NCBI GenBank assembly: GCA_050950505.1
Contig: JBMNHS010000002.1
Location: 90,007-154,006, forward strand
Length of the DNA stretch: 64,000 nt
Reading direction: 5' to 3'
DNA from: Candidatus Methanomethylophilaceae archaeon
GTDB lineage: Archaea > Thermoplasmatota > Thermoplasmata > Methanomassiliicoccales > Methanomethylophilaceae
Under the pieces are notes generated by a model that was not told where the DNA came from, searched no databases, and worked only from the letters and a program-made list of their open reading frames with translations. The position numbers and the translations under genes are program-made. Positions 29,628 to 54,674 of the stretch are shown here, one piece after another; positions within the stretch are counted from its first letter, which is position 1; each line of letters opens with the position of its first letter.

Positions 29628-30398
29628 ATGCACGCTGCGCTGTACTCTAGGGTATCGACTGAAGATCAGGCCCGCGAAGGGTTCTCTCTCGATGCTCAGA
29701 TGAAACGGCTGGAAGCATATTGCAAAGTCCGCGGTTGGGAAATCGGGGGACGGTACAGGGACGAAGGATATTCCGGAAGGGACACGGATCGTCCGGAATA
29801 CAGAAGGATGTTCGAAGAGTCCGACAAATGGGACATTCTTCTCGTTCTGAAAATGGATCGTATCCACAGGAACAGTGTGAACTTTGCACTTATGATGGAC
29901 GATCTCCGGAACAAAGGAAAAGAGTTCAATTCCATTCAGGAGAAGTTCGACACTACCACGGCCATGGGAAGATTTGTGATGGATATAATGCAACGAATCG
30001 CCCAGCTGGAAAGTGAACAGATCGGCGAACGGGTAAAAGTGGGAATGACCCGCAAAGCAAGATACGGAACGGGTCCCTTGGGATCCGGTCATCCTTACGG
30101 TTATGTTTATTCGAAAGGAAATCTGGAAGTCATAGAAGACGAGGCCTACACCGTGAAACGCATATACCGCATGTATGCCGACGGCAATTCCATGGGGAAA
30201 ATCGCGGACAGATTGAACGATGACGGAATTCCGGCGAAGAAAGGCGGCAGTTGGAACAGACAGTCCGTCCACAATATCCTGAGGAACCCTTTGTACCTGG
30301 GATACATAGAATGGGACGGAATAACCAGAAAGGGAGACCATTCTCCCATACTGGACAGAAAATCTTATGAGGTGGTGAATGGACCTTTCGAACCCTGA
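29628..30398 (+). CDS. Serine recombinase (resolvase plus recombinase domain), copy A
   Basis: YSRVSTEDQ, DEGYSG, RPEY, KMDRIHRN, AQLESEQIGER, PYGY, ILRNPLYLG. Confidence 0.93.
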   Translation: MHAALYSRVSTEDQAREGFSLDAQMKRLEAYCKVRGWEIGGRYRDEGYSGRDTDRPEYRRMFEESDKWDILLVLKMDRIHRNSVNFALMMDDLRNKGKEFNSIQEKFDTTTAMGRFVMDIMQRIAQLESEQIGERVKVGMTRKARYGTGPLGSGHPYGYVYSKGNLEVIEDEAYTVKRIYRMYADGNSMGKIADRLNDDGIPAKKGGSWNRQSVHNILRNPLYLGYIEWDGITRKGDHSPILDRKSYEVVNGPFEP

Positions 30399-32212: not shown

Positions 32213-34118
32213 TCAAAACATGCTCAGAACAAGATCGGAGTATGCTATCGGGTCGTCCAAGGGTATGTCGGCCATGATACTTGCCTGACCGTACATGATT
32301 TTCACCATCTTGGCGGCTTTTTCTTTATCCGATTCGATGGACTCTTCAAGAGACCTGAACGCGGGATGCTCCGAGTTGAGTTCCAGAACCCGGGAGGCTT
32401 TGATGTTCTCCCCTTCGCCTCCGGGCATCTCCATGAAGTATTTCTCCATCTCGAAAGTTATGTTGCCCTTGGTGGTCAGGAACACCGCGTGTTTTTTCAA
32501 TTTTCTTGAAATCCTGACCTCAGAAACATCTTTGCCCAGAGTCTCTTTCACGAAATCGACGACATCTTTGTATTTCTCGTCTTTTTCTTCGGCTTCCTTC
32601 TTCTCCTCTTCAGATTCAAGACCCAGATCCTCGGTGGATACGTTGCAGAGCGGCTTTCCGTCATATTCGTTCAGGAAGTTGACCATGAAAGGATCCACTT
32701 CGTCGGTCATCAGCAACACGTCGTATCCTTTCTCAAGGACAGGTTCCATCTGAGGCAGAGTTTTCGCGCGTTCCACGGAGTCGGAGACGATGTAGTATAT
32801 TTTTTCCTGCTCTTCGGCCATTCCTTCGACGTAATCGGCAAAACTCACGGTTTCGCCGTTTGCGGTTTCGAAGAGAACCAGATCTTTCAGGGTGTCCTTG
32901 TCCATACCGTAATTGTCCACTATGCCGTATTTCAGCTGCTGGCCGAAGGCTTTGTGGAATTCTTTGTATGTTTCCGGTTCATCCTTCATCAGGCGTTCCA
33001 ATTCGGATTTTATTTTTCTGGTGAGGTTGGAACCGATGGATTTTAACTGTCTGTCGTGCTGAAGCACCTCTCTTGAAATATTCAGCGAAAAATCCGGAGA
33101 ATCAACGACACCGCGGACGAATCTGAAGTAATACGGCAACAAATCCTCGCATTTGTCCATAATCAACACTCCGGACGAGTACAACTGAAGCCCGGGTCTG
33201 AAATCCCTGGTGTAGAAATCATAAGGCGCGTTCCTGGGCACGAAGAGCATTGCTTTGTAACTGGTGAGTCCCTCGGCGTCCACTCTGATTACGGAAACTG
33301 GATCTTCGTAATCGTAGAACGTTTGTTTGTAGAACTCGATGCACTCTTCGTCGGAAACCTCATCTTTGCTTTTTTGCCAGATGGGAACCATGCTGTTGAT
33401 CAGTTTGTTTTCCGTGAATGTGACGTATTCGGTCTTCGGTTCCCCGTCTTCGTCCTTTCTCGCCGGTCTCTTCCCATTTGCCGGATTCGACATCCATGTA
33501 AATGGGCCAGCGGATGTAGTTGGAGTAATTGACCACGAGCTCCCTCAGACGGTCAATGTTCAGGAATTCGCTGTAGTTTTCGTCTTCGGTGTCTTCTTTG
33601 ATGTGCATTATGATGTCGGTGCCCACGGATTCCCGTTTGGCTTTCTTTATGGTGTAACCGTCAATCCCTTCACTTTCCCACATCGAAGCTTCTTCCTCGC
33701 CGAAGGCCTTGGATATGACGGTGACTTTGTCGGAGACCATGAACGCGGAATAGAATCCGACACCGAATTGGCCGATGACTTCGCTGTCGGCGTTTTCGTC
33801 AAGGCCGGATTTGAAATCGAAAGAGTCGCTGTATGCAATCATTCCGAGATTCTTTTCCATGTCCTTGGCGGTCATACCCACGCCGTTGTCCGACACGGTT
33901 ATTGTGCGGGCTTCCTCATCCGTCGAAACGTCGATGCGGAAATCGTCTCTTGATAAACCGGAGGACGGGTCGGTCATCGCATGATAGTTCATTTTGTCGA
34001 TAGCGTCCGAAGCGTTGGACACTATTTCTCTCAAAAATATTTCTTTATGGGTGTAGATGGAGTTGATCATCAAATCCATCAATCTTTTGGTTTCTGCTTT
34101 GAACTGTTTTTTAGCCAT
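32213..34118 (-). pseudogene. htpG: Bacterial-type Hsp90, split by a +1 frameshift near 33455
   Basis: KQFKAET, NSIYTHKEIFLRE, DNGVGM, GQFGVGFYSAF in one frame; PIW, FVRGVVDS..LNISRE, LELN..H in another. Confidence 0.9.
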
Positions 34119-34368
34119 ATGCATCCTCTTCAATTGATAGAACTGAGTGTTAAGTGTTAGCACTTCTATATAAATATTTGTAATATAAACTTCAGCTTTG
34201 CCGAAGGCTGTTTCCACGGTTGTAAACGACTCCGTAGGCGGAATGAAAAACAAATCAACCACATCGCGGGTTTTTACATTCATTTAATAATGATGAAAAT
34301 TAATCCGAAATCCTGAGATGCGCATTCTTCTGCTTGTGAAGCGGCGCAAAGACGGGTGGGAAACGAAC

Positions 34369-35902: not shown

Positions 35903-36473
35903 TCATAAATCAGATAAGTTATTCTGTTTGGCGTATTCTTCAATTCCCAATAATCTCGTATTAAAAAAAATCAATGGATGAAATCCAATATCCGATGAGT
36001 TCGTTCTCGCCCGTCGGAAATTTTTTCGGTAATAATCTGCAATCCTGCAACAGATTATATTCAATATATTCCTCGAATGAGGTGAACCGATCAAAGAAAT
36101 ATCCATATCGTTCTATTACTCCCTTTATGGGACAGTCGCCTCGCTCTCCGTCATAATACTTTTTAATACTTTGAAGAGTAAAATATAGCATATCGTTTAT
36201 TTGATTATGATAGCCTCTGGCCTGACTTATCGTATTGCCGTTTATTTTGTGAGCAGGGAAGAATATTTTTCCTGCGATTGTCCTGGCGAGATGATAGCAA
36301 TTTTCAGCCAGTTCTTTGTTATTTTCATCATAGAAATTATATCCGACACTCCCAAAATCGAATCTCTTGCTGCCGTACAGTTGTCGCATGGCAATTCGTA
36401 GGTCAGGACAGGGGCGATCGGGGGCTGCTCCAGGTCTTTCAGTGCAATAGTGATGATTTACATCTTTCATCAT
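35903..36473 (-). pseudogene. DUF6994-like protein, probable C-terminal frameshift at a T8 tract
   Basis: FP..KING.TISQARG, TL..IK.YY, YG.FF..F.SF..Y....LLQD recalled as DUF6994-like; removing one T restores ...IDFFNTRLLGIEEY. Confidence 0.55.
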
Positions 36474-36725
36474 GATTCTTACAAGACGTTTTCCTCATCC
36501 AATTTTACATCGGGCTTTATGAACGATTTTTTGTTTGTAAAGGCCTTATTGGTCGATTCGTTCATATCGACAATCATTTATCAATATTATCAAAGCAAAC
36601 AACCCATCTGTTTAAAATATTTTCAAAAATTTTTGTGAGAATCCCCGGTTTAAATACTAATTTTTCTAGATTGTGGAGATCATACTAGGTAACAAATTAA
36701 TAATTGGATGATATGTCCAAAATAC

Positions 36726-37568
36726 ATGTTTCAATTGGCGATATACGGCAAAGGTGGAATCGGCAAATCTACTTTGTCGGCCAATATATCTTATGCGTTA
36801 GCAGGCAAAGGTATGAAAGTTTTACAAATCGGGTGCGATCCGAAACACGACTCAACCCGTTTACTTCTTAACGGTAAAACTCAGAACACCGTTATAGATT
36901 ATCTCAGAACCGTTCCTATGGAACGCAGAAACTTGGACGACGTGGTTTCCATTGGATCGGGCAATGTTCATTGCATTGAAGCAGGCGGTCCGGAACCCGG
37001 GGTCGGGTGTGCGGGCAGAGGCATTCTGACGATGCTTGATTTCCTTGAAAAGAACGGACTTAACGAAATAGATTTTGACATAAGGCTTTACGATGTCTTG
37101 GGCGACGTCGTCTGCGGAGGTTTTGCGGTGCCCCTTCGAAAAAACTATGCAGATGCCGTATATATAGTGACGTCCGGTGAGTTCATGTCTCTGTTTGCCG
37201 CAAATAACATATTGAAAGGATTGCGGAACTACGATGACGGGAGACCCCGCGTCGGAGGACTTATTCTAAATCGCAGAGGTTTGGACGGGGAATACAATCA
37301 TGTAAAAAATTTTGCAGACGGAGTCGGACTTCCCATCGTGTCATGCATAAATCGCGGTCCGCTGTTCGCGGAAGCCGAATCAAAGGGCAAGACGGTAATG
37401 GAACTCTTCCCCGATTCCGACGCAGCTTCGGCAATAAACATAATTGCGGAAGATATCATTCAGAAGAATAATGGCTGCGGACAACTCTATTATCCCAACC
37501 CCCTCGATGACGAATTCATGGATTTGATTGCCAGCGGAACTCCGTTGGACGATGGTCAGATAGTCTAA
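36726..37568 (+). CDS. Nitrogenase Fe-protein (NifH)-like ATP-dependent reductase
   Basis: YGKGGIGKST, GCDPKHDST, GGPEPGVGCAGRG, DVLGDVVCGGFA. Confidence 0.93.
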   Translation: MFQLAIYGKGGIGKSTLSANISYALAGKGMKVLQIGCDPKHDSTRLLLNGKTQNTVIDYLRTVPMERRNLDDVVSIGSGNVHCIEAGGPEPGVGCAGRGILTMLDFLEKNGLNEIDFDIRLYDVLGDVVCGGFAVPLRKNYADAVYIVTSGEFMSLFAANNILKGLRNYDDGRPRVGGLILNRRGLDGEYNHVKNFADGVGLPIVSCINRGPLFAEAESKGKTVMELFPDSDAASAINIIAEDIIQKNNGCGQLYYPNPLDDEFMDLIASGTPLDDGQIV

Positions 37569-37784
37569 TCATCTTATTGTGAATCTCAATGTCCGACATT
37601 GAACACGTCATGTCTGTAAAACAAAAATCTATCTCTTTTCTTCGATTTTAAAGACAATATGTAAAACATGCTAGAAATCTAACAGTTATTGATAATCTTT
37701 TACGCATATTTTACACCCGTTAGGATAGATTTTATATACATAATTTGAATTGGACTATACATCCAATTATACGGAGGTACTATT

Positions 37785-39071
37785 ATGGCTAATAATAAAA
37801 TAATGGCCGTTTTTGTTGTTTTAATACTAGCAGTTTCTGCAGGGGCAGTTTACGGACTGTCGAAAGATAACAAAAACGACGACAGCGGTTACAATCACAG
37901 AACAATGGTGTTTGGCAATGCGAACGGCGACGACAAACTTGACGAGAGCGACATCGAAACGCTGAATATGATAATATCCGACGACATCGAAGACTGGGAG
38001 GAAGATTATCCCTTCGCAGATGCCAATCAGGACGGGGTCATCGATCAGAAGGATATCGATGTTGTCAACAAATATCTGAATGATGAACCAACAAGATTGT
38101 ATTATGTCAACGCGTTCGACAGAGTAACCTGGGTGAATTTCCCCTTGGGAGACAAAATAGGCGTTGAAACCGCATCAATAGAGTTTCTGCCTATTTTAGG
38201 TCTGTATGACAAGCTTTATGCCACAGACTCCGGCTACACGATTACAACATACCCTGACAAATATCCGAATGCGCAGGATAAAGTAATCATCGGTTCTCAA
38301 AAAAGCTTCACTGTTGAGCAGGTTATGAACTCTGGTGTGGAAACACTGTTCATGTATCCAGTGCACGGAGACTATTTCTGGGATAAGGCAGAAGAGTCTG
38401 GACTTGCGGACACTGTATCAGTTATCGTATTGGACACGCAAGGAGACAGAGCAGTGGGCGACGTGCTGATGCTGGGTATATTCTTCAAGGTCCAGGAGCG
38501 TGCGAAATTGTATGCTGATTGGTATGATGAAATTGTATCGAAACTTTCCATCATAGGAGACACTGTTGAGAAAAAAGAAGTCAATGTGATAAACGGTTGG
38601 CCGGTAGGATTCACTAAAGGTGAATTCACTGTCTGCGGTTCGGAATTCCGTCCCGTGGGTCATTATCACCATATCATAGATTTCCAGGAAAATTATCGCG
38701 GTCCGGCCAATATGTCGGTGAATTTTGAAAATTTCATTAACAGTTGCACGGATGATATTATTGTGATACTGCACAGAAACAGTGACATTCTGCCGGAAGA
38801 TTTCGGTAGTTATTGTCAGAACAGAATTGAAGAAGCCTTCCCGCACACGGAACAGTTGGCAAACGGAACAATATATGCTGTTGAGTGGGATTGTTCTCCC
38901 AATTTGGGCGGTATCGCCGGAATGTATCTGTTAGCTTCATTCATTTATCCGGAGTATTTCGACACAGAAACCGGATATGAATATCTGCAGTACTTCCTGG
39001 ACAACTTCCACGCTCAGACAGGGTTCGATGCGCATGCCGGATTCGTGTATGCGATTACACCCACGGCCTGA
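37785..39071 (+). CDS. Metal-chelate ABC substrate-binding protein with N-terminal dockerin/EF-hand-like module
   Basis: N-terminal TM/signal; GNANGDDKLDESD and DANQDGVIDQKD; C-terminal ASFIYPEYF; precedes a FecCD permease. Confidence 0.8.
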   Translation: MANNKIMAVFVVLILAVSAGAVYGLSKDNKNDDSGYNHRTMVFGNANGDDKLDESDIETLNMIISDDIEDWEEDYPFADANQDGVIDQKDIDVVNKYLNDEPTRLYYVNAFDRVTWVNFPLGDKIGVETASIEFLPILGLYDKLYATDSGYTITTYPDKYPNAQDKVIIGSQKSFTVEQVMNSGVETLFMYPVHGDYFWDKAEESGLADTVSVIVLDTQGDRAVGDVLMLGIFFKVQERAKLYADWYDEIVSKLSIIGDTVEKKEVNVINGWPVGFTKGEFTVCGSEFRPVGHYHHIIDFQENYRGPANMSVNFENFINSCTDDIIVILHRNSDILPEDFGSYCQNRIEEAFPHTEQLANGTIYAVEWDCSPNLGGIAGMYLLASFIYPEYFDTETGYEYLQYFLDNFHAQTGFDAHAGFVYAITPTA

Positions 39072-39082
39072 AAGGTGATGGA

Positions 39083-40207
39083 ATGGAGGACCAAAGGAAC
39101 AATGTAAGCCCGGTGGTAAAAAGGGCATCTGACCTTTGGTCCTCTTCTTACGAGGAAACAGAACTCAAAGAAGCGTTAAACAGCTACCGCGGCAGCATTG
39201 CGAAAAAAATAGTGTTCATAGCCGTGTGCATCACTGCGGCATTCGTAGTCAGCGGCATTTCTCTGGGAACGGGATCAAGCGATTTCGGGTTTGTCGGTTC
39301 ATATAAAATCTTATGGAACCATATCACCGGCGTACCGCAGAACAAATTGATTGACTACATAATTTGGAATGAACGTCTGCCGCCGATTCTGATGGGTCTC
39401 ATCGGAGGGGCCGGACTTGCGATGGGCGGGGTGGTCATGCAGGGAATTTTCAGAAATCCCCTTGCGGATCCTTACACGACGGGTATATCATCCGGCGCGG
39501 GATTCGGGGCCACCCTGGCCGTCGTAGCAGGCATTACCATAGTCAGCGGCAAATACGCCCTGGTGATAAACGCATTCGTTTTTGCGTTGATTCCGGTAAT
39601 GTTGATTACGTCTGTAGCGAGGATGAAAGGAGCCTCTCCGACTACTATGATAATGGCCGGAATCGCAGTGATGTATATTTTTGGTGCATTCACAACCCTG
39701 TTCAAATTGATGGCGGACCCAAATGCACTGTCTGCTCTGTTCATATGGCAGACAGGTTCTTTGGGTCTGGTCACATGGGAAGAACTTCCGCTTGTTTTTG
39801 CCGTCACGGTAGCAGGTTTGGTTTATGTTCAAATCAATGCCCGCAAACTTAATGTTTTATCCACTGGGGAGGAAACCGCCAAATCCATGGGAATCAACGT
39901 GGAAAATTTAACAAACAAAGTGTTGCTGGTAATGACGCTCGTTGTAGCGACAATCGTCAGTTTTACGGGACTGATAGGGTTTGTAGGACTGGTTTCACCA
40001 CATATTGCCAGGATGGTTGTCGGTGCAGATAACAGATTCTTGTTGCCCGCTTCCGCGGCCTTCGGCGGAATGCTTCTTGTGATTTCCGATCTCATAGGCC
40101 GCACGATAATTGCCCCTTCGACGTTGCAGGTGGGAGTCATCATGGCATTTATCGGCGGACCCATGTTCCTGTATCTGATATTGAGGAGGAAAAAATCCAC
40201 ATGGTGA
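39083..40207 (+). CDS. FecCD/BtuC family permease
   Basis: RLPP, FRNPLADPYTTGISSGA, EETAKSMG, GLIGFVGLVSPHIAR, GGPMFL. Confidence 0.94.
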   Translation: MEDQRNNVSPVVKRASDLWSSSYEETELKEALNSYRGSIAKKIVFIAVCITAAFVVSGISLGTGSSDFGFVGSYKILWNHITGVPQNKLIDYIIWNERLPPILMGLIGGAGLAMGGVVMQGIFRNPLADPYTTGISSGAGFGATLAVVAGITIVSGKYALVINAFVFALIPVMLITSVARMKGASPTTMIMAGIAVMYIFGAFTTLFKLMADPNALSALFIWQTGSLGLVTWEELPLVFAVTVAGLVYVQINARKLNVLSTGEETAKSMGINVENLTNKVLLVMTLVVATIVSFTGLIGFVGLVSPHIARMVVGADNRFLLPASAAFGGMLLVISDLIGRTIIAPSTLQVGVIMAFIGGPMFLYLILRRKKSTW

Positions 40208-40995
40208 CGCGTATTGTTCTGAATGATGTTTCCTTTGAATATACGAAGGGTAAAAAAATACTGCATAACATAAATTTAACTCTGGACAGGCCGGGGTTGA
40301 CATGCATTATCGGCCCTAACGGGGTCGGAAAATCTACTTTGATAAAAATCATAAACAAACTGTTGATACCATCTTCAGGTTTCGTCAGCATAAACGGCAA
40401 GGACGTCAAAGAGATGTCCAGAAAGGAAATTGCCGAGCTGATAGCTTTTGTTCCTGTCGGATTCGCCGATGTTTTTTCCATGAATGTCGTCGATACCGTG
40501 CTGATAGGAAGACATAACAAGAACAAATGGAAAACCTCGGATAATGACATAGCGGTGGTAAAGAAAACGTTGGATGTAATGGGCATGGGAGCGTATTCAG
40601 ACAGGACATACAGCGAGTTATCCGCCGGGCAGTGTCAAAAAATAAACATTGCGAGAGGGCTGGCTCAGGAAACAAAGGTTCTGTTGCTCGATGAACCGAC
40701 TGCAAACCTGGATGTCAAACATCAGATTTACGTTACCGAGCTTCTGCGGGACATCGCAATCAGAAACAACCTGTCCGTGATTATGATAAGTCATGATTTG
40801 AACATCGCTTCAAAATTCGCAGACACTCTGGTAATGATGTCCAAACCGGGGGTAATTCATGCTGTGGGTCAACCTGACGACATCATAACTTCCGACAACA
40901 TTTTCAATGTTTACGGGGCACACAGCAATATTGTGGAACATGAAGGAAGGCCTGCCGTTTTGCTGAGTTACATGATTGACGATGTATTGGAATGA
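40201..40995 (+). CDS. FecE/BtuD family ABC ATPase
   Basis: GPNGVGKST, LSAGQ, LLDEPTANLD, SHDLN. Confidence 0.94.
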   Translation: MVTRIVLNDVSFEYTKGKKILHNINLTLDRPGLTCIIGPNGVGKSTLIKIINKLLIPSSGFVSINGKDVKEMSRKEIAELIAFVPVGFADVFSMNVVDTVLIGRHNKNKWKTSDNDIAVVKKTLDVMGMGAYSDRTYSELSAGQCQKINIARGLAQETKVLLLDEPTANLDVKHQIYVTELLRDIAIRNNLSVIMISHDLNIASKFADTLVMMSKPGVIHAVGQPDDIITSDNIFNVYGAHSNIVEHEGRPAVLLSYMIDDVLE

Positions 40996-40999
40996 TATC

Positions 41000-43120
41000 A
41001 TGTACAAAGTCGCTCTGTACGGAAAAGGGGGAATCGGAAAATCAACCGTCTCTTCGAACATATCTTACGTTTTGAGTTCCAAGGGTTATTCCGTATGCCA
41101 TATCGGTTGCGATCCCAAACATGATTCGACTAAGTCGATAACCATTGAAAAGAATCAGAGAACCGTGTTGGATGTGATACGGGATTACAAACAGGACGTG
41201 GTCGTCTCCGATTTGGTTTCGGAAGGATTGAACGGTATTTGCTGCATAGAAGTCGGCGGACCGGAACCCGGAATAGGATGCGCCGGTCACGGGATGGTCA
41301 CGGCCTTCGACAAACTGAACAAACTCGGATTTAAATCTGAGAATTTTGACGTCGTTCTTTATGATGTTCTGGGAGACGTCGTATGCGGCGGATTCGCAGT
41401 GCCTCTACGGAAAGACAACGCCGATGCGGTTTACATCATCACATCGGGAGAGTTCATGTCGATGTACGCCGCGAACAATATCATGAAAGGGATATTGAAC
41501 TTCAGTGAAGACCATCCTCGCGTTGCGGGACTCATATTGAACAAAAGGGGTTTGGAGAATGAATACGAACGAGTCAAAAGGTTTGCCGACGCCGTTGGTG
41601 TTCCAATCATCGCATCCATAGACCGAGACGAACACTTCCGTAAATCGGAAGTTGCCCGCAGACCCATATCCCAATTGTACCCGGATTCGGAACCGGTACG
41701 GGCCATCAATGAAATAGTCGATAATCTGGCCGCGTTAGTTGACGGACGCGGACAACTCTACTGTGCCAAACCTTTAAATGATGAACAGTTGGAGCAGTTG
41801 GCTTCAGGCAGACCGATTACAGGCTCCCAGGTTATCGATACCGCGGAAACTGAGCCGTTCGATCTGGAAACAAAACGGAATTTATTAAAAGTCTGCGCCA
41901 CAAAAGGGGCCGCAGTCATGGTAGTGTCCGGAATTAAAGACCTTCAAATCATAATACACGGACCCAAAAGTTGCGGTCATATGATAAACACGGCAATCAC
42001 CAATCACCGTATGCCCGGTTTCAACGGGGATTCCCTGGATTATTTGCCGTTGAATAAAGTGCATTGCACATGCATGGACGAAGTCTCCTCCATATACGGA
42101 GGAATACCGAAGCTGGAGGAACAAATATCCGAACTGCTTGCTTTGGGTAAGAAGAATTTTGTTATAATCACGACGTGCGTCTCCGGCATGCTGGGTGATG
42201 ACATAAAAGCTGTTGCGGACCGGGTAAGTAAAGAAAATCCGGATGTGACAGTGATAGACATTCCCGCGGACGGGGTGATGTCCGGAGATGACAAGGGCGG
42301 ACGTATAATCGCTTTGAACAAACTCCTGGATTTGATATGCGTCACCAATACGGCCACAATTGACGGCGTTACGTTGTTCGATGAGTTTTACCGCAGATTC
42401 GAATCAAAAGAAAACAGAGAATCCATAGACAAAATATTCGGATTGATGGGACTGAAGTTGAATCTGAAGCTGTTTGAGGACTGCAGCGTCGAAGAGATAA
42501 TCGGAGCAAAGAAGAACCGATTCACCGTAATGGCAAGGGACAGCGACAACAACAAAATCATGAAGGCGGAACTTGAGAAGAAAGGAATTTCCGTGTACGA
42601 AAATCCGTTGCCCAAAGGGATTCCCGAATCCAAAAAATGGATTGCGGAATTTACCGCAGAAAACAATATAGACGGCACCCGAATCAGAACGTATCTTGAT
42701 TCAATTTGCAGGGAATACCAAGACAGCGTAAAAAAGAATTCACATATTTTCAGCGGCAAGAAGGTCGGAATATATTCAACAACAGAAACGGACTTCGAAT
42801 GGGTTCTTAACGTTTTGAAAGATTTGAACATCGATATAACAGGGATAGCGGTAACACCGGACAATTCTTCAAATTTCTTAAAAAACGGCGATTACGAAAA
42901 ACTTATTAAAAAAGTCAAAGGCAAAGATTTGTCAAAGACGATATCGGGATGGAATGCGGATTACATAATCGGAGACATGGCGTTGCCGGGGAGGAACCGA
43001 AAGAACACCCTCCATTTGGACTATAACGGTGTGTTCTGCGACCCGTCTCTGAATCTGATTGATAAACTTCTGAAACTGAACAACAATAAACGGGAGGGGT
43101 GGAAAGAATGGGGCATATGA
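41000..43120 (+). CDS. NifH - nitrogenase component-1 (NifD/E-like) fusion protein
   Basis: NifH motifs, then VCATKGA, HGPKSC, TTCVSGMLGDDI (three cluster Cys). Confidence 0.9.
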   Translation: MYKVALYGKGGIGKSTVSSNISYVLSSKGYSVCHIGCDPKHDSTKSITIEKNQRTVLDVIRDYKQDVVVSDLVSEGLNGICCIEVGGPEPGIGCAGHGMVTAFDKLNKLGFKSENFDVVLYDVLGDVVCGGFAVPLRKDNADAVYIITSGEFMSMYAANNIMKGILNFSEDHPRVAGLILNKRGLENEYERVKRFADAVGVPIIASIDRDEHFRKSEVARRPISQLYPDSEPVRAINEIVDNLAALVDGRGQLYCAKPLNDEQLEQLASGRPITGSQVIDTAETEPFDLETKRNLLKVCATKGAAVMVVSGIKDLQIIIHGPKSCGHMINTAITNHRMPGFNGDSLDYLPLNKVHCTCMDEVSSIYGGIPKLEEQISELLALGKKNFVIITTCVSGMLGDDIKAVADRVSKENPDVTVIDIPADGVMSGDDKGGRIIALNKLLDLICVTNTATIDGVTLFDEFYRRFESKENRESIDKIFGLMGLKLNLKLFEDCSVEEIIGAKKNRFTVMARDSDNNKIMKAELEKKGISVYENPLPKGIPESKKWIAEFTAENNIDGTRIRTYLDSICREYQDSVKKNSHIFSGKKVGIYSTTETDFEWVLNVLKDLNIDITGIAVTPDNSSNFLKNGDYEKLIKKVKGKDLSKTISGWNADYIIGDMALPGRNRKNTLHLDYNGVFCDPSLNLIDKLLKLNNNKREGWKEWGI

Positions 43121-44367
43121 ACAATGATACGGACCTGGACGGATTGTTCGGGGCATTATTGTCGATATACAGCATAAGGGAGTTCAGAGTGTTGTTTCAC
43201 GGACCCGACGGTTGCAGAAAGTATTTTTCGATGGTATCCGGCTTATCCAACCGAAACTCCGAAGGATTGAAAGGACATCCGGATGAAGATGACGGTGTGA
43301 AAATTTTCGGAACAAGCATGAGTGCCGACGATTTTTTCTCGGACAGTTCCAAAAAAATAAGGAAGAGCGTCGACCTGATACGGAAACTGACAAAGGATCC
43401 CGTTGTGATTCTGCCGTCTCCCGGTGCATCGCTTCTCGGTGTGGATTATAACAACATATGTGCGGATTATGACAACCTCTTAGTCATCGACAGTTCCTTT
43501 GCGTTGAAATCCTTCTATGAAGCATTCGATGAGACCACTCTTAAAATGATAAAGTGGCTCTTACCGGACAAAAATAAAAATCGCAATAACACCGTCAATA
43601 TAATCGGTATCAATCCCTGTTCCAGATGCAAGGATTATTTTATTGATGAGTTGACAGATTTGTTGAAATCAATGGGTATAGACGTGATATGTTGTTTGGG
43701 ATCGGATACTTCAATAAAGACCATAGAGGATTCCGTCAATGCATCCGTCAACATCCTCATATCCCCTGAGTACGGAATCAAGACCGCAGAATATTACAAA
43801 GAAGTCTACGGCATACCTTACATATCGGATTCCGACGGAGCGCCGGTCGGATTTGACTCCATAACTTCATTGGTCGGAAAGATAACGGAGGTGATGCATG
43901 TTTCCGGAACCGGACCGTTGAACGCAATTTCAAAAGCAAAAAAACAAGCATATGCGGGTCTCATGAGAAACCGCGGCGGCGAGTTTGATAAAATCCGGTA
44001 TGCAATTTCAGGCGACGTCTCCATAGTTCTTCCGTTGATAAAATGGCTTAACAGGTCATTTTCCATGGTTCCGTGTTCCGTTTCCATAAACCAACATGAC
44101 GACGGAAGATATGCGGCCGCCGTCGACAGTTTCCTTGAATCCATTGACTGCTGTGATTGTTTGAATGCACCGTTGCCCGACAATGTCGATCTTCTGATTT
44201 CCGACAAAGTGTATTCAAAGTTATTTTTCGCATCCGGCGGTTGCAGGGCATACATAGGATTGGATGTGCTGTCCTCAGGAATCTACGATTTGATGGACAG
44301 GCCCATTCTGGGACTGCAGGGAACCAAGTTCATACTGGATACCATGATCAACCTGCCTCACACCTGA
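43117..44367 (+). CDS. Nitrogenase component-1-like second subunit (NifK/N-like, divergent)
   Basis: DGLFGAL, HGPDGC, SPGASLLG, VNIIG, YGIPY, PVGF, PILG..G; ATGA overlap with the fusion gene. Confidence 0.82.
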   Translation: MNNDTDLDGLFGALLSIYSIREFRVLFHGPDGCRKYFSMVSGLSNRNSEGLKGHPDEDDGVKIFGTSMSADDFFSDSSKKIRKSVDLIRKLTKDPVVILPSPGASLLGVDYNNICADYDNLLVIDSSFALKSFYEAFDETTLKMIKWLLPDKNKNRNNTVNIIGINPCSRCKDYFIDELTDLLKSMGIDVICCLGSDTSIKTIEDSVNASVNILISPEYGIKTAEYYKEVYGIPYISDSDGAPVGFDSITSLVGKITEVMHVSGTGPLNAISKAKKQAYAGLMRNRGGEFDKIRYAISGDVSIVLPLIKWLNRSFSMVPCSVSINQHDDGRYAAAVDSFLESIDCCDCLNAPLPDNVDLLISDKVYSKLFFASGGCRAYIGLDVLSSGIYDLMDRPILGLQGTKFILDTMINLPHT

Positions 44368-44611: not shown

Positions 44612-45262
44612 ATGATCAAAGCAATATTGTTCGACATGGACGGTGTTCTGATTGACACCGAGAGGATCAACCTCAGATTCACCATTGAGGCCGCCAAGGA
44701 TTTCGGATTCGATCTGAAGCCGGAAGATGCACTGAAGCAAAGAAGCACTGCGCCGGAGGAGTCTGACCGATACTACCGTTCCGTGTACGGCGAAGATTTT
44801 GATTTTTATGCCATACGGGATGAACGGAGAAGACGTATGCGTGATTTTATCGAAGAAAACGGTTTGGATCTCAAAGAAGGTGTCAGAGAAGTTTTTGAAC
44901 ATCTTGAAAAAATGAATCTGAAGAAAGCGGTGGTCACATCCACACAATACGACAGAGCGATGAACTACATCCGAATGCTGGGTATAGAAAACAGATTTGA
45001 TGCCATCGTTTCCGCATCCATGGTTGAACGCGGAAAACCCTATCCAGATGTTTATCTTTATGCCACGGAAAAAATCAACGAGAAACCTGAAAACTGCATT
45101 GCGGTTGAAGACTCGCCCAACGGCGTCCGCGCCGCATACGGGGCAGGTTGCAAAGTAGCCATTTTTCCCGATCTGACCGAACCCGACGAAGAGATGCGCA
45201 ACATGGGAACCTGGGTGCTGAAGTCCATGGAAAGCCTCATCGGAATCTTGGACGAATCATAG
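44612..45262 (+). CDS. HAD family phosphatase (beta-PGM-like)
   Basis: FDMDGVLIDT, VTS, GKPYPD, EDSPNG. Confidence 0.92.
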   Translation: MIKAILFDMDGVLIDTERINLRFTIEAAKDFGFDLKPEDALKQRSTAPEESDRYYRSVYGEDFDFYAIRDERRRRMRDFIEENGLDLKEGVREVFEHLEKMNLKKAVVTSTQYDRAMNYIRMLGIENRFDAIVSASMVERGKPYPDVYLYATEKINEKPENCIAVEDSPNGVRAAYGAGCKVAIFPDLTEPDEEMRNMGTWVLKSMESLIGILDES

Positions 45263-45408: not shown

Positions 45409-45834
45409 GTGGATTGGAAAGCGGAGAGGCATATCACACCAAGAGTGATAAAGCAATACTTGGACAAAAAAATGACTGCCCGCATGGAATCGCTGGGATT
45501 GCAGGGTTCCCAGGGGGCGTATCTGATGACCGTGGCCGAGATTCCCGGGGCGTCCATGAAAGAAGTGTCGGCATACATGATTGTGGACAAATCAATCACA
45601 ACCCGCACCATGGGTGCGTTAATCGATGCGGGTTTTGTATCAAACGAAAGCAGGGATGCAAGGCGTTACAGTCTGGTACTCACTGAGAAAGGGAAAGACG
45701 CGGTGAAAGTAATCGAGAAGATATCCAACGAAATTTGGGAGGAGCTTCTCTCCGATCTTACCGAACAGGAATTGGCCGCCTTCAAATCGGCACTCGCCAA
45801 AATAAACGCCAAATTCAACGAGGAGACCGATTGA
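45409..45834 (+). CDS. MarR family regulator (GTG start inferred)
   Basis: VDKSITTR..LIDAGFV...DARRYSLVLTEKG. Confidence 0.88.
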   Translation: MDWKAERHITPRVIKQYLDKKMTARMESLGLQGSQGAYLMTVAEIPGASMKEVSAYMIVDKSITTRTMGALIDAGFVSNESRDARRYSLVLTEKGKDAVKVIEKISNEIWEELLSDLTEQELAAFKSALAKINAKFNEETD

Positions 45835-47585
45835 TGATTTTCAAATATATCAACAGAAAAGAATGGTCCCTTGTTGCCGTATGTTTAGTTCTGGTATGTT
45901 TCCAGGTCTATCTCGAATTGGAAATTCCGGGATATATGGCTCAAATCACGACTTTGCTTACCACGGGCGGAACAGTTGAGCAAATCATGAACCAGGGGTG
46001 GCCCATGATCGGTGCCGCACTCGGAAGTTTATTGATGGCAATTCTTGTCGGAGCCGTCGCCGCATACATTGCGGCGTCTTTGGCTCAGCGTCTGCGCAAG
46101 TTGCAGTTTGACAAAGTGGGATTGTTCTCCAAGGCTGAAACCGGCAAATTCTCTCTTGCAAGCCTCATAACGCGTTCCACAAACGATATCACTCAGGTTC
46201 AGACCGCTTTTGCAATAGGGATGCAGGTCATCATGAGAGCACCGATAATGGCAATATGGGCTCTCGTGAAAATTTCAAGCAAGGATATGACCTGGACTCT
46301 GGCGATGGCCGTTGCCATAGCGGTTCTGATGTCAACGATATCCGTTGTGATGTACCTCGTAATACCGCGTTTCAAGATAATGCAAAGGTTAACGGACAAT
46401 GTCAACCGCATAACCGAGGAAGGGTTGACCGGAGTGAGGGTGGTCCGCGCATACAATGCAGAGAGTTACCAGGAGGCCAAGTTCGAGGTTGCCAATGATG
46501 ATTTGACATCCACGAATCTGTTCACAAGCCGTACCATGGCGGTCATGTCTCCCATAATATCTACGGTAATGAGCCTGCTTTCTTTGTCAATATACATCAT
46601 CGGCGCGATTTTGATATCCGCCGCACCGAGTCTCAACCTAAGACTGGAATTGTTCTCGGATATGATTGTATTCTCATCCTATGCGATGCAGGTGGTCATG
46701 GCGTTTATGATGTTGGTGCTGATTTTCATGATCGTCCCGCGCGCCGCCGTGGCAGCCAGACGCATTGAGGAAGTGATCGATACCGAACCCTCCATCGAAA
46801 ACGGCAACATAAGCGAATCTCCCGAAGGGAAAGAAGGGGAAATAGAGTTCAGAAACGTGTCGTTCAGATACCCGGGCGCAGCGGACAGTGTGTTGGAAGA
46901 CGTCAGTTTCAAAGTTGAAAAAGGGGAAACCGTGGCGTTCATAGGTTCAACCGGAAGCGGCAAAAGCACGTTGATAAATCTCGTTCCGCGTTTTTATGAC
47001 GTGACGGGAGGGCAGATACTTGTTGACGGGGTTGACGTCCGCGATTACGAACTTGATGTTCTTCACGGAAAAATCGGGTATGTGCCGCAGAAAGCGATCT
47101 TATTTTCCGGCACGGTGGAAAGCAACGTGAATTACGGGGATACTGACGATAAACGAACGCTGGATGATGTGAAGAAAGCCGTGGCCATCGCTCAGGGAAC
47201 GGATTTCGTGGAGAAGATGGAAAACGGTTACGAAGGCGCAATATCGGAAAGCGGAACAAATCTGTCCGGGGGACAGAAACAACGTTTGGCCATCGCCCGT
47301 GCAATCTGCAGGAAACCGGAATTTTTCATTTTTGACGATTCATTCTCCGCTCTCGATTACAAAACGGACAGGATTCTGAGGGATGCTTTGAAGAAAGAAA
47401 CCTCGGGAGTCACCAGTTTGATTGTGGCACAAAGAATAGGGACCATCATGGAAGCCGATACGATAGTGGTATTGGACGAAGGCCGTGTTGCCGGGATTGG
47501 GAAACACAGGGATTTGCTGGAAAATTGTGAAGTGTACAGAAGCATCGCTTTTTCTCAATTGTCTGAAAAGGAGTTGATGGCATGA
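45834..47585 (+). CDS. ABC exporter, heterodimer half 1 (TMD+NBD, degenerate Walker B DD)
   Basis: SLITRSTND, GSTGSGKST, LSGGQKQR, FDDSFSALD, AQR. Confidence 0.94.
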   Translation: MIFKYINRKEWSLVAVCLVLVCFQVYLELEIPGYMAQITTLLTTGGTVEQIMNQGWPMIGAALGSLLMAILVGAVAAYIAASLAQRLRKLQFDKVGLFSKAETGKFSLASLITRSTNDITQVQTAFAIGMQVIMRAPIMAIWALVKISSKDMTWTLAMAVAIAVLMSTISVVMYLVIPRFKIMQRLTDNVNRITEEGLTGVRVVRAYNAESYQEAKFEVANDDLTSTNLFTSRTMAVMSPIISTVMSLLSLSIYIIGAILISAAPSLNLRLELFSDMIVFSSYAMQVVMAFMMLVLIFMIVPRAAVAARRIEEVIDTEPSIENGNISESPEGKEGEIEFRNVSFRYPGAADSVLEDVSFKVEKGETVAFIGSTGSGKSTLINLVPRFYDVTGGQILVDGVDVRDYELDVLHGKIGYVPQKAILFSGTVESNVNYGDTDDKRTLDDVKKAVAIAQGTDFVEKMENGYEGAISESGTNLSGGQKQRLAIARAICRKPEFFIFDDSFSALDYKTDRILRDALKKETSGVTSLIVAQRIGTIMEADTIVVLDEGRVAGIGKHRDLLENCEVYRSIAFSQLSEKELMA

Positions 47586-49399
47586 GTCCTCCTCCGGGCT
47601 TTATGGGCAGACCCAAACACGGCAAAATAAAGGGAGAGAAACCCAAATCTTTCAGCAATGCATGGAAAAAGCTCTTTTCATATTTGGAAAGATACAAAAT
47701 TGCTGTATGGATTGCGATGATATTCGCATTCATCGGCACCGCATTCACGTTGATAGGTCCGAACAAACTCAGCGATCTGACGGATTTGGTAAAGGATGGT
47801 CTGGTATCCGGCAATGTGGATATGGTTGCCGTTTGGGAAATCGGATATTTCCTGATTGCCATATATGCCGCCAGCGCAATTCTGACGTTCTTGCAGAATT
47901 ACATCATGGCCACCGTATCGCAGAAGACCGCATTGAGACTCCGTACGGACGTTTCGAAAAAGATCAACCGTCTTCCTTTGAAGTATTTTGACAGTTCCAG
48001 CAAAGGGGACATACTGAGCCGCACTACCAACGACATAGACACGTTGGGACAGTCCATGAATCGGAGTCTGGGCACGTTGATTACATCGGTGACCATGCTG
48101 ATAGGTTCCGTGGTCATGATGGCTTATACGAACATGTCAATGATGATTGTCACGGTTCTGTCATCTCTGGCCGGTTTCGTCCTGATGACCCTGATAGTCA
48201 AACGGTCTCAGAAATATTTCGTCAAACAACAGGAATACTTGGGCAAGATGAACGGTCACGTGACGGAAATCTATTCTTCGCATGATGTGGTCAAGGTATA
48301 CAACGGACAGAAAAACGCCACCAAGGAGTTCGACACCATAAACGAAGGTCTGGCGAGCAGCGCGTTCATGTCCCAGTTCCTTTCCGGACTCATGATGCCG
48401 TTGATGAATTTCATCGGCAATCTCGGATATGTGGTTGTGTGCATCTTCGGTGCAATCATGGTCATAAACGGAAACATAACCATAGGCGTCATCGTGGCAT
48501 TCATGATTTACGTACGTCTCTTCACACAGCCGATGTCTCAGCTGGCACAGGCTTTCACGGGCATGCAGTCCGTGGCCGCTTCGGCGGAAAGAGTCTTTGA
48601 ATTCATAGAAGAAGAGGAATTGCCCTCCGAAGAAGATCTTATTCATAAAATGGAGAACGTCAGGGGACACGTGGAATTCAGAGACGTGCACTTTGGCTAC
48701 GTCCCCGGAAAAGAAGTCATCCGCGGATTCTCCGCAACGGTGGAACCGGGTCAGAAAGTTGCCATTGTCGGACCTACGGGAGCGGGAAAAACCACCCTGG
48801 TCAATTTGCTCATGAAGTTCTACGAAACGGACGGCGGCGACATCCTTGTGGACGGCGTTTCAATCAAAGACATGAAACGCAGCGATGTTCACGAACTCTT
48901 CTGCATGGTGTTGCAGGATACCTGGATTTTCGAAGGCACCGTCAGGGAGAACATCGTCTATTCGAAAATGAATGCGACGGATGAAGAAGTGATAGAGGCC
49001 TGCAAAGCCGTAGGAGTCGATCACTTCATACGGACGTTGCCCAACGGATATGACACGATGCTTGACAACACCGCTTCGCTTTCCGTGGGACAGAGGCAGC
49101 AGATCACTATTGCACGTGCGATGGTGGAAAATGCTCCGATGCTCATATTGGACGAGGCAACAAGCTCCGTCGACACGAGAACCGAGAGAATGATTCAGAA
49201 TGCGATGGATGCCATGACCGGCGGGCGTACGTCTTTCGTCATCGCCCACCGTCTTTCCACGATCAAGAATTCGGATATGATATTGTTGATGAAAGACGGT
49301 AATATCGTCGAACAGGGAACTCACGAAGAGCTTCTTGCTTTGGGCGGAGAGTATGAGGAACTGTACAACAGTCAGTTTGAAGATATGTCGGCAATATGA
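47582..49399 (+). CDS. ABC exporter, heterodimer half 2
   Basis: GPTGAGKTT, LSVGQRQ, LDEATSSVD, AHRLST. Confidence 0.94.
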   Translation: MSPPPGFMGRPKHGKIKGEKPKSFSNAWKKLFSYLERYKIAVWIAMIFAFIGTAFTLIGPNKLSDLTDLVKDGLVSGNVDMVAVWEIGYFLIAIYAASAILTFLQNYIMATVSQKTALRLRTDVSKKINRLPLKYFDSSSKGDILSRTTNDIDTLGQSMNRSLGTLITSVTMLIGSVVMMAYTNMSMMIVTVLSSLAGFVLMTLIVKRSQKYFVKQQEYLGKMNGHVTEIYSSHDVVKVYNGQKNATKEFDTINEGLASSAFMSQFLSGLMMPLMNFIGNLGYVVVCIFGAIMVINGNITIGVIVAFMIYVRLFTQPMSQLAQAFTGMQSVAASAERVFEFIEEEELPSEEDLIHKMENVRGHVEFRDVHFGYVPGKEVIRGFSATVEPGQKVAIVGPTGAGKTTLVNLLMKFYETDGGDILVDGVSIKDMKRSDVHELFCMVLQDTWIFEGTVRENIVYSKMNATDEEVIEACKAVGVDHFIRTLPNGYDTMLDNTASLSVGQRQQITIARAMVENAPMLILDEATSSVDTRTERMIQNAMDAMTGGRTSFVIAHRLSTIKNSDMILLMKDGNIVEQGTHEELLALGGEYEELYNSQFEDMSAI

Positions 49400-49805: not shown

Positions 49806-51107
49806 TGTTCTAGAAAACAATTAAGTTTACAGCAGTGAAGAGAAACAGACGGAATCGAACGGACGAATGTCCGTGAGATTACGTCTGTTTCTCCGCGAAA
49901 GTAACAGAATGTTTGAAGAAAGTGGGATTCTTTATAGGATTTCGCTATGAAAAAAAAGAATCCCGATAAGAGAGAAGTCAAACGACTAGAAAAACTTGAG
50001 GATGCTAAACAAAATCTGAGGTTGCGTGCCGCCGAGATGGTAAAAGACGGTTTCAGCTACCGCGAAGCGGGAAAAATCCTTGGAATGAGTCATCAGTTTG
50101 TGAAGATCTGGGTCGGAAAACTGCTTGAGAAAAAGCGTGTGAAAAGAACCTTCGTTTATGTATTCAGAAAGTGCGCGAGGAAGCTTGCCGCGACACGGAA
50201 GCCGGGCCCGAGGCCCGGCTTGGACCGTGTCTGCGACAAGATAACGGATATCGTGGTTCCCGTCAGAAAAAAATATCCCTTCCTTGGGGCCGAAAAAATA
50301 AAGGTTATGTCGGGCGCGGACGCGTCCGCGCCCACCGTCCGCAAGGCGCTGGCCAAAGCAGGATTCGGGCCGATTACAAAAAAGAAGGGAAAAGCGTACA
50401 AAACATTCTGCGCAAGATGCCCCAACGAAATGTGGCAGATCGATTACGTCGATATTTACGGAGACAATCTGCTGTCGGTAATAGACGACCATTCCCGCAA
50501 AATACTGTCCGTGAATCTCAGAAAAACCGCCACAACCGATGATGTCCTGGAGATACTGGCTATTGCGATGGAAACCTACGGCAAGCCGAAAAGCATACTT
50601 TCCGACCACGGCACCCAATGGTACGCCGCCAGAGGGGGCGATGCCAGATTCGATAAATTCTGCGAGGAACACGGAATAAATCACATAATGGGGCAGATCC
50701 GAAAACCGACCACCACCGGAAAAGTCGAACGCTGGCACGGAACCATCCGCCGGGAGGCCTGCCTCCCGGCGAACAGAGATACCGAAACGAAAAAAGATAT
50801 TCTGGGCGGGTTTGTCGAATTTTACAATACGTTACGTCCCCATTATGCCCTCGGGCTCAGAACTCCCGACGAAGTCTATTACAAAGCGTGACCCCGCCGT
50901 TTTACATCGGATTGATTCCCAGACAGTCATCCGCGAACAGCGGACGCTTCCGCGCCGAAGGCCGCGGAAGCCTCCGGCAGAGACACTTTTCGCAGAGAGA
51001 CGCCCGCAATCACTCGCGGACATACGTCCGCTCGCTCTCGCGGGCGTCTCTCTATTTATCTGATAAACACTTTTCTTCTTCTGTAAAGATAATCACTTTC
51101 TAAAACA
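49806..51107 (+). mobile_element. IS481-family insertion sequence (about 1.3 kb)
   Basis: TGT...ACA ends; imperfect TIRs TGTTCTAGAAAACAATTAAGTTTACAG / TGTTTTAGAAAGTGATTATCTTTACAG (21/27); no TSD seen. Confidence 0.82.
49947..50891 (+). CDS. DDE transposase, IS481-like (HTH plus integrase core)
   Basis: WQIDY, IDDHSR, SDHGTQW, GKVERWHGT, YNTLRPH.ALG..TP. Confidence 0.92.
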   Translation: MKKKNPDKREVKRLEKLEDAKQNLRLRAAEMVKDGFSYREAGKILGMSHQFVKIWVGKLLEKKRVKRTFVYVFRKCARKLAATRKPGPRPGLDRVCDKITDIVVPVRKKYPFLGAEKIKVMSGADASAPTVRKALAKAGFGPITKKKGKAYKTFCARCPNEMWQIDYVDIYGDNLLSVIDDHSRKILSVNLRKTATTDDVLEILAIAMETYGKPKSILSDHGTQWYAARGGDARFDKFCEEHGINHIMGQIRKPTTTGKVERWHGTIRREACLPANRDTETKKDILGGFVEFYNTLRPHYALGLRTPDEVYYKA

Positions 51108-54625: not shown

Positions 54626-54674
54626 GTAATCAACACCATAAAATATAGATTGTAAATGGTTTGGTGTTCGATGT

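Follow-up and report, generated by a model that had tools for sequence, protein, structure and literature searches.

What does a methanogen do with a nitrogenase-like reductase whose genes are interlocked with those of an importer? The question is raised by six co-oriented open genes at positions 36708-44367 of a 64,000-nucleotide stretch of DNA (the window; contig JBMNHS010000002.1 of assembly GCA_050950505.1, positions 90,007 to 154,006), which forms the final 64 kb of contig C2 in the 1.33-Mb, 99.6% complete genome of a Candidatus Methanomethylophilaceae archaeon. Open reading frame (ORF) listing and family scans identified a free nifH-like gene, separated by a 216-bp AT-rich gap from the genes for a substrate-binding protein (SBP), a FecCD permease, an ATP-binding cassette (ABC) ATPase, a NifH-NifD fusion (H-D fusion) and a NifK-like chain (K), the last five being packed with gaps of at most 11 bp and overlaps of at most 22 bp. 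This arrangement had been described in an earlier reading of the bare sequence (the original prediction), together with the proposal of an uncharacterised ATP-driven reductase tied to the importer, and this proposal is now supported by the separate clades and the conserved linkage reported below. Our comparisons show that the locus is predicted to encode an intact two-component nitrogenase-like reductase of its own clade, with ligands for [4Fe-4S] clusters only, within a type-II importer operon. On its role our confidence is roughly even: it would be a reductase that is driven by ATP and takes as its substrate an imported corrinoid or a similar tetrapyrrole.

Membership of the nitrogenase-like superfamily is supported by a NifH-type ATPase with a P-loop and two cluster cysteines, together with a pair of PF00148 chains. 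In the alignment of the fusions, the P-loop is present and C102 and C137 of the NifH-type ATPase are invariant. In the D domain, C307, C333 and C401 are invariant in 18 fusion proteins and in the alignment match the three NifD P-cluster Cys of retrieved nif loci, whereas no Cys or conserved His is found at the positions aligned with the iron-molybdenum cofactor (FeMo-co) ligands Cys275 and His442, either in the window D or in nine other D chains, fused to H or unfused; the alignment also revealed no NifE-type upstream Cys in the window D. The K chain keeps only the Cys of the HGPxGC motif (C39, equivalent to NifK Cys95), which is invariant in 20 K chains, and K-like chains have Gly at the position of NifK Cys70 and Ser or Pro at that of Cys153. 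Of the six Cys of a nitrogenase P-cluster, D therefore has three of three and K one of three, as the original prediction had read from the sequence. The three Cys of D and the one of K are enough for one inter-subunit [4Fe-4S] cluster, and there are no P-cluster or FeMo-co/L-cluster ligands.

The nitrogenase-like chains of the locus miss every curated NCBIfam equivalog cut-off. The two NifH domains score 312.6 and 283.4 with the nifH model (cut-off 394) and 309.8 and 299.2 with the CfbC model NF033200 (cut-off 402), and the other chains reach 72.9 for nifD (cut-off 653), 19 for nifK (427), 69 for BchB (490), 26.7 for BchZ (529) and 22 for the BchN-type model (324). With the CfbD model (TIGR03282, cut-off 268) the locus D scores 32.4, as against 394.4 for the true CfbD of the same genome. 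In a midpoint-rooted FastTree tree of 283 PF00148 proteins (from which sequences below 300 or above 700 residues and the own-genome duplicates L001-L009 were left out), the D domains of the fusions form a clade of 87 leaves (support 97) and their K partners one of 81 leaves (support 100). Both are separate from the NifD/NifE-type clade, which has 65 leaves, and CfbD is on a long branch. By sequence, D and K of H-D fusion systems are thus clades of their own among the PF00148 proteins of all retrieved loci. Of the phylogeny that the original prediction had called for, against Nif, Cfb, Mar, Nfa and Bch, the tree itself covers the separation from NifD/NifE-type proteins and CfbD, while that from Mar, Isr, Nfa and Bch rests on ligands, NCBIfam cut-offs and profile scores against the PDB. 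In the latter, the D profile gave 197.6 bits with NifE, 171 with methanogen NifD and 151.6 with MarD, but only 57 with ChlN, and the K profile found MarK nearest (8e-29), then the NifN part of NifEN, then BchB. The AlphaFold model of K (mean predicted local distance difference test score, pLDDT, 85.7) superposes on AnfK with template modelling (TM) scores of 0.78/0.73 and on BchB with 0.78/0.78.

These data distinguish the locus from the named members of the superfamily. A nitrogenase was rejected, as K has one Cys, D lacks the FeMo-co ligands and the nifH, nifD and nifK cut-offs are missed. CfbC/CfbD (Group IV-B) resemble the locus in their occurrence in methanogens, their similar-scoring NifH-like subunits, the use of [4Fe-4S] clusters only and a tetrapyrrole substrate, which in our case is the proposed one. 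However, a full cfbC-A-E-D-B cluster, with cbi genes, lies on the same contig about 95 kb upstream, which means that the locus system is not CfbCD; in agreement, the model scores are below cut-off, and CfbD is described as acting without a K partner (PMC13474568), whereas here a K-like gene overlaps the fusion gene. The MarHDK and IsrHDK systems (Group IV-C/IV-F) share the H, D and K composition, and MarK and MarD are the best and among the best solved relatives of K and D, respectively. Mar is reported to keep P-cluster and L-cluster ligands and to require MarB/NifB (PMC13474568, PMC13753814), whereas in our locus K has one Cys, D has no cofactor Cys, both the P-cluster and the L-cluster (mar2) ligands are missing and no radical-SAM nifB-like gene is present; in addition, the importer is of the FecCD class and the window has no sulfur-metabolism neighbours, so a MarHDK identity was also rejected. 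As noted in the original prediction, neither nifB nor cfb genes are found nearby, nifB being located on contig C1.

A close analogy in architecture is with the dark-operative protochlorophyllide oxidoreductase (DPOR; BchL/BchN/BchB, Group V), which also combines an ATP-dependent Fe protein with a D/K-type heterotetramer, has one inter-subunit [4Fe-4S] cluster held by three α-chain Cys and one β-chain residue, lacks a complex metallocluster, and acts on a tetrapyrrole, as we propose for the locus. The structural similarity of K to BchB agrees with this, but the kinship in sequence is low (see the ChlN and BchB scores above), the H domain is fused to D, an importer takes the place of bch genes, and the fourth ligand, given as Asp in addition to three Cys for DPOR (PMC13474568), is a Cys in the locus K. 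The pair formed by NifH and NifEN is also similar, with NifE nearest to D by profile. NifEN has 3 + 1 Cys at its subunit interface for its [4Fe-4S] cluster, the pattern seen in the locus, which differs in having no cofactor-binding Cys, no nif context and an H domain fused to D. Among the other groups, IV-D, IV-E and VI are listed in reviews as uncharacterised (PMC13474568), and Group VI is tied, in the account given of it, to radical-SAM genes and not to importers (bioRxiv 10.1101/765248).

The free H subunit belongs with the fusion. In a quick IQ-TREE analysis (midpoint-rooted) it lies inside the clade of fusion H domains, in a starred six-row group (96*), and not with CfbC; it is 70% identical to the H domain of the L119 fusion, and its C-terminal end is the linker-like sequence also seen in the fusions. 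The possibility that it is a CfbC copy was rejected by this nesting. The locus has the domain complement H + H-D + K, and its H and H-D match the domains of homologs of about 1090 residues (P0004-P0018 and L021:2627-5884), which are NifH-NifH-NifD triple fusions, whereas P0093 is a NifH-NifH double. From this we infer that the free H probably pairs with the fused H domain to give an ATP-hydrolysing Fe-protein dimer. The triple fusions, in which the Fe-protein dimer is tethered, occur in Myxococcota and in metagenome contigs. Some H-D fusion homologs (G104:C1:1531309-1533399 in L094 and G058:C1:1373653-1375590 in L143) carry one in-frame TAG, which could be read through, as the order encodes pyrrolysine, or could mark a broken gene.

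The importer is of type II (the BtuCDF/FecCD class), with a FecCD permease (PF01032), an ABC ATPase (PF00005) and an SBP assigned to class III by fold only. The SBP has no Pfam SBP match (PF01497 was undetected), only a weak dockerin-like one, and a sequence search of the PDB likewise returned dockerin-like matches only, but Foldseek relates its AlphaFold model (pLDDT 84.1) to class-III SBPs of the Peripla_BP_2 type. The best NCBIfam match of the permease is BtuC, and those of the ATPase are heme and corrinoid ABC ATPases, all under cut-off. The locus thus has the FecCD permease, ABC ATPase and class-III SBP fold of BtuCDF, HmuTUV and FhuBCD, and differs from them in that no known operon of this importer class has a nitrogenase-like reductase.

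In order to follow this linkage we surveyed 76 H-D places from 151 genomes of Methanomassiliicoccales, of which 72 have an H-D ORF (L139, L143, L158 and L160 do not, by ORF/BLAST labelling). The K gene is adjacent to H-D in 64 of these 72 loci, and a FecCD gene is found near the H-D/K unit in 44 within 9 kb, 38 within 5 kb, 22 within 3 kb and 6 within 1.5 kb, against a chance expectation of at most about 11% per 21-kb span (41 genomes of the family, each of about 1.4 Mb, contain 286 FecCD matches, some 7 per genome), although relatives are non-independent samples in such counts. In the D tree the locus groups with L128, L129, L130, L134, L146, L093, L095 and L092, and SBP and FecCD genes adjoin H-D/K in seven of the eight loci of this subclade. 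The SBPs nearest to that of the locus (33-36% identity) adjoin its nearest H-D relatives, in loci of the same subclade, which indicates that the SBP/FecCD/H-D/K module was inherited as a unit. FecCD, ATPase and SBP genes also flank H-D/K in four Methanomassiliicoccales records, one of which, L014, has all of them interleaved on a single strand. Together with the bacterial operons described below, the survey bears out a coupling between reductase and importer; the D and K chains lie outside CfbC/CfbD and, judged by ligands, cut-offs and profile scores, outside Mar, and the linkage is kept, the two points on which the original prediction had staked itself.

Other recurrent neighbours in 81 archaeal loci are CobN (16), ChlI/D-like AAA+-VWA proteins (7), CbiZ (5), ABC-2 exporter permeases (15), FMN_red flavoproteins (11), SufBD (6) and MatE (6). 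CobN, CbiZ and ChlID genes are all absent from the window itself; the single CobN of the genome, with ChlI- and ChlD-like partners, is located amid FecCD importers and adjoins neither H-D locus. A radical-SAM family is common to an H-D/K locus of Methanosarcina (L022:7727-8824) and one of Methanomassiliicoccaceae (L014:1612-2520).

A clue to the substrate comes from the DNA upstream. Comparison of upstream regions revealed palindromes of the AATTGGA-N7-TCCAATT type before the free H gene, before the SBP operon and before a second H-D/K pair on contig C1. The core TTGGA-N7-TCCAA is found at 13 genomic sites (26 if both strands are counted, with a shuffle mean of 2.2), is the commonest intergenic palindrome of its form (9 sites, the runner-up having 6) and has two matches in the window, where 0.21 are expected from dinucleotide shuffles of the window. 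The genome shuffle keeps mononucleotide content only, and the ranking of all palindromes and the window shuffles are the better controls. Besides the free H gene, the SBP operon and the C1 H-D/K paralog (one mismatch), the sites precede three SBP/FecCD importers, divergent ABC ATPases beside CobN-ChlID, divergent cbiD and cbiL-F-H-C, sirC-like and hemA (one mismatch), and nrdD (one mismatch), in a genome that also encodes the B12-dependent NrdJ; no recognisable iron-uptake or iron-storage gene is among the sites found. A weaker half-site, ATTGGACACATCATCCA, precedes the cfbC NifH domain by about 70 nt. The palindrome is conserved: 80 loci from relatives, with 1.50 Mb in all, have 73 perfect sites, of which 25 precede H-D genes and 24 precede SBP genes (19 SBP and 5 labelled "SBP?"). 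At the SBP operon, AATTGGACTATACATCCAATT is flanked by the TATA-like TTTTATATAC and by GGAGG and the ATG of the SBP gene, apparently TATA and Shine-Dalgarno-like elements.

The cis-element is thus common to the locus and to genes of cobamide biosynthesis and transport. Bacterial B12-riboswitch regulons, in the description by Rodionov et al. from 2003, reportedly contain cbi genes, importers, CobN-ChlID and the B12-independent NrdD. The content of the archaeal regulon mirrors this list, with control apparently by a DNA palindrome and not by a riboswitch, and on these sequence grounds TTGGA-N7-TCCAA could be the archaeal protein-operator counterpart of the B12-riboswitch regulon.

Bacterial homologs provide a second type of regulatory element. 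Unfused H, D and K genes are found in operons with SBP, FecCD and ATPase genes in L040, L077, L050, L060, L069, L043 and L032; L040 and L077 keep the gene order of the locus, and the extra genes of the bacterial operons encode Peripla_BP_2 SBPs. In L069 (Clostridium argentinense, order H-D-K-SBP-FecCD-ATPase) a cobalamin riboswitch (RF00174, 111 bits) is directly upstream of the nitrogenase-like operon, and in L020, from a metagenome-assembled genome of Peptococcaceae, another (54.7 bits) is directly upstream of an H-D fusion of the same clade as that of the locus, followed by K. The hosts of the unfused operons include Treponema, Lachnospiraceae, Ruminococcaceae, Clostridium and Phascolarctobacterium. 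Their D chains group apart, in a clade of 11 where some lack the Cys62 equivalent, and some of the K chains lack the remaining Cys.

The shared operator regulon and the cobalamin riboswitches favour a corrinoid over iron release from a siderophore, both of which had been offered as example substrates in the original prediction. In the mechanism that we propose, the importer would bring in a corrinoid or close tetrapyrrole, the dimer of free and fused H would hydrolyse ATP, and electrons would reach an organic or metal-tetrapyrrole substrate, bound in the D/K cavity, by way of the D/K [4Fe-4S] cluster. The most natural reaction would be the reduction of Co(II) to Co(I), or a reductive remodelling of salvaged corrinoids, ahead of adenosylation and re-use, and the operon would be repressed when B12 is plentiful.

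Several observations weigh against a corrinoid substrate. The best folds for the SBP are those of iron, siderophore and heme SBPs (4hn9, YiuA, PhuT, CeuE and ShuT), and BtuF is not among the Foldseek entries listed for the model. The permease scores 199.5 bits with FhuB, 195.4 with HmuU and 173.5 with BhuU, all above the 139 of BtuC, although similarity among these permease sequences does not discriminate among substrates. In 28 of the 72 archaeal loci there is no FecCD gene within 9 kb, and where present the importer is mostly 1-5 kb away and not contiguous; the C1 paralog of this genome has no importer beside it, and the system is accessory, as the H-D fusion is found in only two of eight genomes of the same genus. 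Among the bacteria, 15 of the 17 loci scanned with Rfam have no cobalamin riboswitch, and in L029 H-D/K is followed by PALP and aminotransferase genes, neighbours whose families suggest sulfur or amino-acid metabolism. Finally, the response of the palindrome regulon to B12 is a conclusion we draw from its gene content, and B12 riboswitches and regulons also govern B12-independent bypass enzymes, so that regulation alone is no proof of a corrinoid role.

This last point leads to an alternative that we consider unlikely, a B12-independent bypass enzyme, repressed by B12 like MetE and NrdD, which could, in the way of MarHDK/IsrHDK, for example cleave C-S bonds of organosulfur compounds and so provide methanethiol or sulfide for methionine. 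The logic of the riboswitch and of the regulon, with nrdD among its members, would fit such an enzyme too, as would the position of MarK and MarD among the best solved relatives, the L029 neighbours and the co-localisation of bacterial Group IV-A/D/E/F clusters with sulfur genes noted in PMC13753814. However, the linked transporter is of the class for metal chelates, heme and B12 and not of a sulfonate, thioether or methionine type, the neighbours in archaea are CobN, ChlID and CbiZ, no marB/nifB gene adjoins the locus, and K and D lack, respectively, the two P-cluster Cys and the cofactor Cys used by Mar (features as described in PMC13474568).

Just as unlikely, in our estimate, is a role in iron acquisition, in which heme or a ferric siderophore would be imported, the reductase would free the iron, possibly with CobN/HmuS-like dechelatases, and the metal-free ligand would be exported. 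The SBP folds, the permease scores and the best match of the ATPase to a heme ABC ATPase all point this way, ABC-2 or ABC exporters are frequent neighbours, and CobN homologs are found by 16 of the 81 loci; HmuS, itself a CobN homolog, is described as a heme dechelatase, its archaeal homologs being left unexplained there (PMC12583661). Against it stand the operator regulon, which has cbi, hemA, sirC and nrdD but, at the sites found, nothing recognisable for the uptake or storage of iron, the riboswitches of the bacterial operons, and the CobN of this genome, which has ChlI-/ChlD-like ATPase partners as for inserting chelatases. Moreover, reduction of Fe(III) chelates normally needs no ATP-driven reductase.

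Salvage or modification of coenzyme F430, or of another nickel tetrapyrrole, appears very improbable. In its favour are the methanogen host, the scores of both H domains, which on the CfbC model are almost as good as on that of nifH, and the half-site upstream of cfbC, but homologous H-D/K and unfused systems are found in non-methanogens (Clostridium, Peptococcaceae, Treponema, Lachnospiraceae), and most genomes of the same genus make F430 without an H-D system. We give hardly any credence to a NifEN-like scaffold or maturase, or a cryptic nitrogenase, handling a NifB-derived iron-sulfur cofactor: NifE is the best solved relative of D, the 3 + 1 Cys pattern is that of NifEN, nifB is present in the genome and the name "fused nifH/nifE" has been used (PMC4153887), but D lacks both the equivalents of NifD Cys275/His442 and the NifE-type upstream Cys, there is no nifDK to mature, nifB is reported as universal among methanogens (bioRxiv 10.1101/2023.10.20.563283), and the coupling to an importer would be left unexplained.

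The features of the locus are collected in the table below. For the free H gene the likelier start is ATG 36726, which gives the usual MFQLAIYGKGG. The fusion gene overlaps the ATPase gene by 20 bp if started at TTG, or follows it after a 4-bp gap if started at ATG 41000, in which case the product has 706 residues, as does the database entry P0001. Contigs from four other metagenome runs span the whole 8 kb, with indels only at 36562, 36667 and 37780, all intergenic; the indel-free coding regions in these independent runs, together with P0001, rule out that the fusion or the gene order is an assembly artefact. Near-identical DNA is present in 18 runs that cannot have been the source of the assembly, from digesters, bioreactors, landfills, wastewater and manure, and no RNA run is listed for the locus.

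Table. Genes and candidate operators of the importer-reductase locus and its downstream neighbours (positions in the window, except in the last line).
Feature	Position	Strand	Basis or remark
Candidate operator palindrome TTGGATGATATGTCCAA (TTGGA-N7-TCCAA)	36704..36720	.	overlaps first ATG of nifH-like gene (36708); ends 6 nt before ATG 36726
Free NifH-like Fe-protein subunit, 286 aa from 36708	36708..37568	+	PF00142, E 2.7e-88; P-loop and the two [4Fe-4S] Cys present
Candidate operator of the importer-reductase operon, perfect 21-nt palindrome AATTGGACTATACATCCAATT	37748..37768	.	core 37750-37766
Membrane-anchored SBP, 428 aa: N-terminal helix, dockerin-like Ca-binding module, class-III SBP fold	37785..39071	+	fold by AlphaFold/Foldseek
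FecCD/BtuC-type permease of type-II ABC importer	39083..40207	+	PF01032, E 2.5e-84; 11-bp gap after SBP gene
ABC importer ATPase	40201..40995	+	ABC_tran, PF00005; 7-bp overlap with permease gene
NifH-NifD fusion, 714 aa from TTG	40976..43120	+	PF00142 residues 11-276, PF00148 residues 307-669
Fusion domains: H, linker, D	H ~41006-41803; D ~41894-43117	+	cluster Cys C307, C333, C401
K-like (beta-type) partner, 422 aa	43099..44367	+	PF00148, E 1e-32; C39 in HGPDGC; 22-bp overlap with fusion gene
HAD-IA phosphatase, 245 bp downstream of K-like gene; membership of the system uncertain	44612..45262	+	family scans; no recurrence at the loci of relatives
Two ABC exporter half-transporters, 616 and 605 aa; possible export arm, membership uncertain	45735..49399	+	family scans
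Palindrome sites outside the window	C1:79731, 199183, 861469, 865525/865603, 870387, 874756/874846, 980101, 1091448; C2:10266, 22343, 27258		own-genome scan

Exporter pairs like that downstream of the locus also adjoin H-D/K in L093 and L146, of the same D subclade, and in L015, L016, L110 and L112. In the whole genome there are four NifH-type and five PF00148 places, which are accounted for by CfbC/CfbD, the locus set and the second H-D fusion and K on contig C1. A thermosome gene and the full cfb cluster identify the host as a methanogen, and the homologs that carry names are from Methanomethylophilaceae/Methanomassiliicoccales. Scans of the window found no tRNA gene and no Rfam family.

The locus is bracketed by genes for a serine recombinase (30379-31245), a DUF6994 protein (35961-36473), an rve-type integrase/transposase (49947-50891) and an AAA_14/DUF4143 ATPase (51143-52351), and the GC content falls to 0.41 at 36-38 kb. 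These flanking genes and the GC drop, together with the absence of the H-D fusion from most genomes of the same genus, suggest that the locus may be on an acquired island. A second FecCD importer at 52741-56949 (an SBP that has dockerin-like as well as Peripla_BP_2 domains, a FecCD permease, a minus-strand S-adenosylmethionine methyltransferase and a divergent ABC ATPase) has no perfect palindrome. Further away, positions 1-1794 encode a CobQ/CbiP-like amidotransferase whose N-terminus bears a Cys-rich zf-like domain, and the large ORFs at 2.7-15.8 kb are a leucine-rich repeat (LRR) surface protein gene, a P-type ATPase gene and helicase/nuclease genes; the first of these, at 2692-5958, is a BspA-type LRR protein of 1088 residues, and a similar protein of 1499 residues is found near the C1 paralog. 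On the minus strand, an Hsp90 (HtpG) homolog is present as two overlapping ORFs, 32213-33493 (HSP90 domain, 426 aa) and 33360-34283 (HATPase_c, 307 aa), which may represent a frameshift or a split gene.

In one respect the original prediction has to be corrected, as the H-D fusion has already been noted in print, without a function, as the "fused nifH/nifE" of Borrel et al. (PMC4153887) and as cluster 443 (PMC11237513). Our literature search found no paper giving a function of the H-D fusion clade, its coupling to an importer, the palindrome or the link to riboswitches. The boldest form of our proposal, which we advance tentatively and regard as rather less probable than the corrinoid or tetrapyrrole reductase in general, is that cobamide metabolism would here have its first nitrogenase-like enzyme, an importer-coupled, ATP-driven "corrinoid reductase" that reduces or remodels corrinoids on entry, for example from Co(II) to Co(I), and provides the low-potential reductase still missing from B12 salvage in anaerobes and archaea, controlled by the TTGGA-N7-TCCAA protein-operator regulon in Methanomassiliicoccales and by cobalamin riboswitches in bacteria.

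Most nitrogenase-like clades are still without a function, and the present one is large, with 2757 homologs at E <= 0.001; its members are found in methanogens from digesters, landfills and guts as well as in anaerobic bacteria. The clade now has a testable context in the coupling to an importer, the corrinoid-type regulon and the cobalamin riboswitches, and the palindrome is a candidate handle on B12 regulation in archaea, where riboswitches are lacking. If the substrate is indeed a corrinoid, the tetrapyrrole chemistry of nitrogenase relatives would come to include B12 besides chlorophyll and F430, the many archaeal CobN homologs and FecCD importers that lack an explanation would be accounted for, and the system would be relevant to the B12 economy of methane-producing communities.

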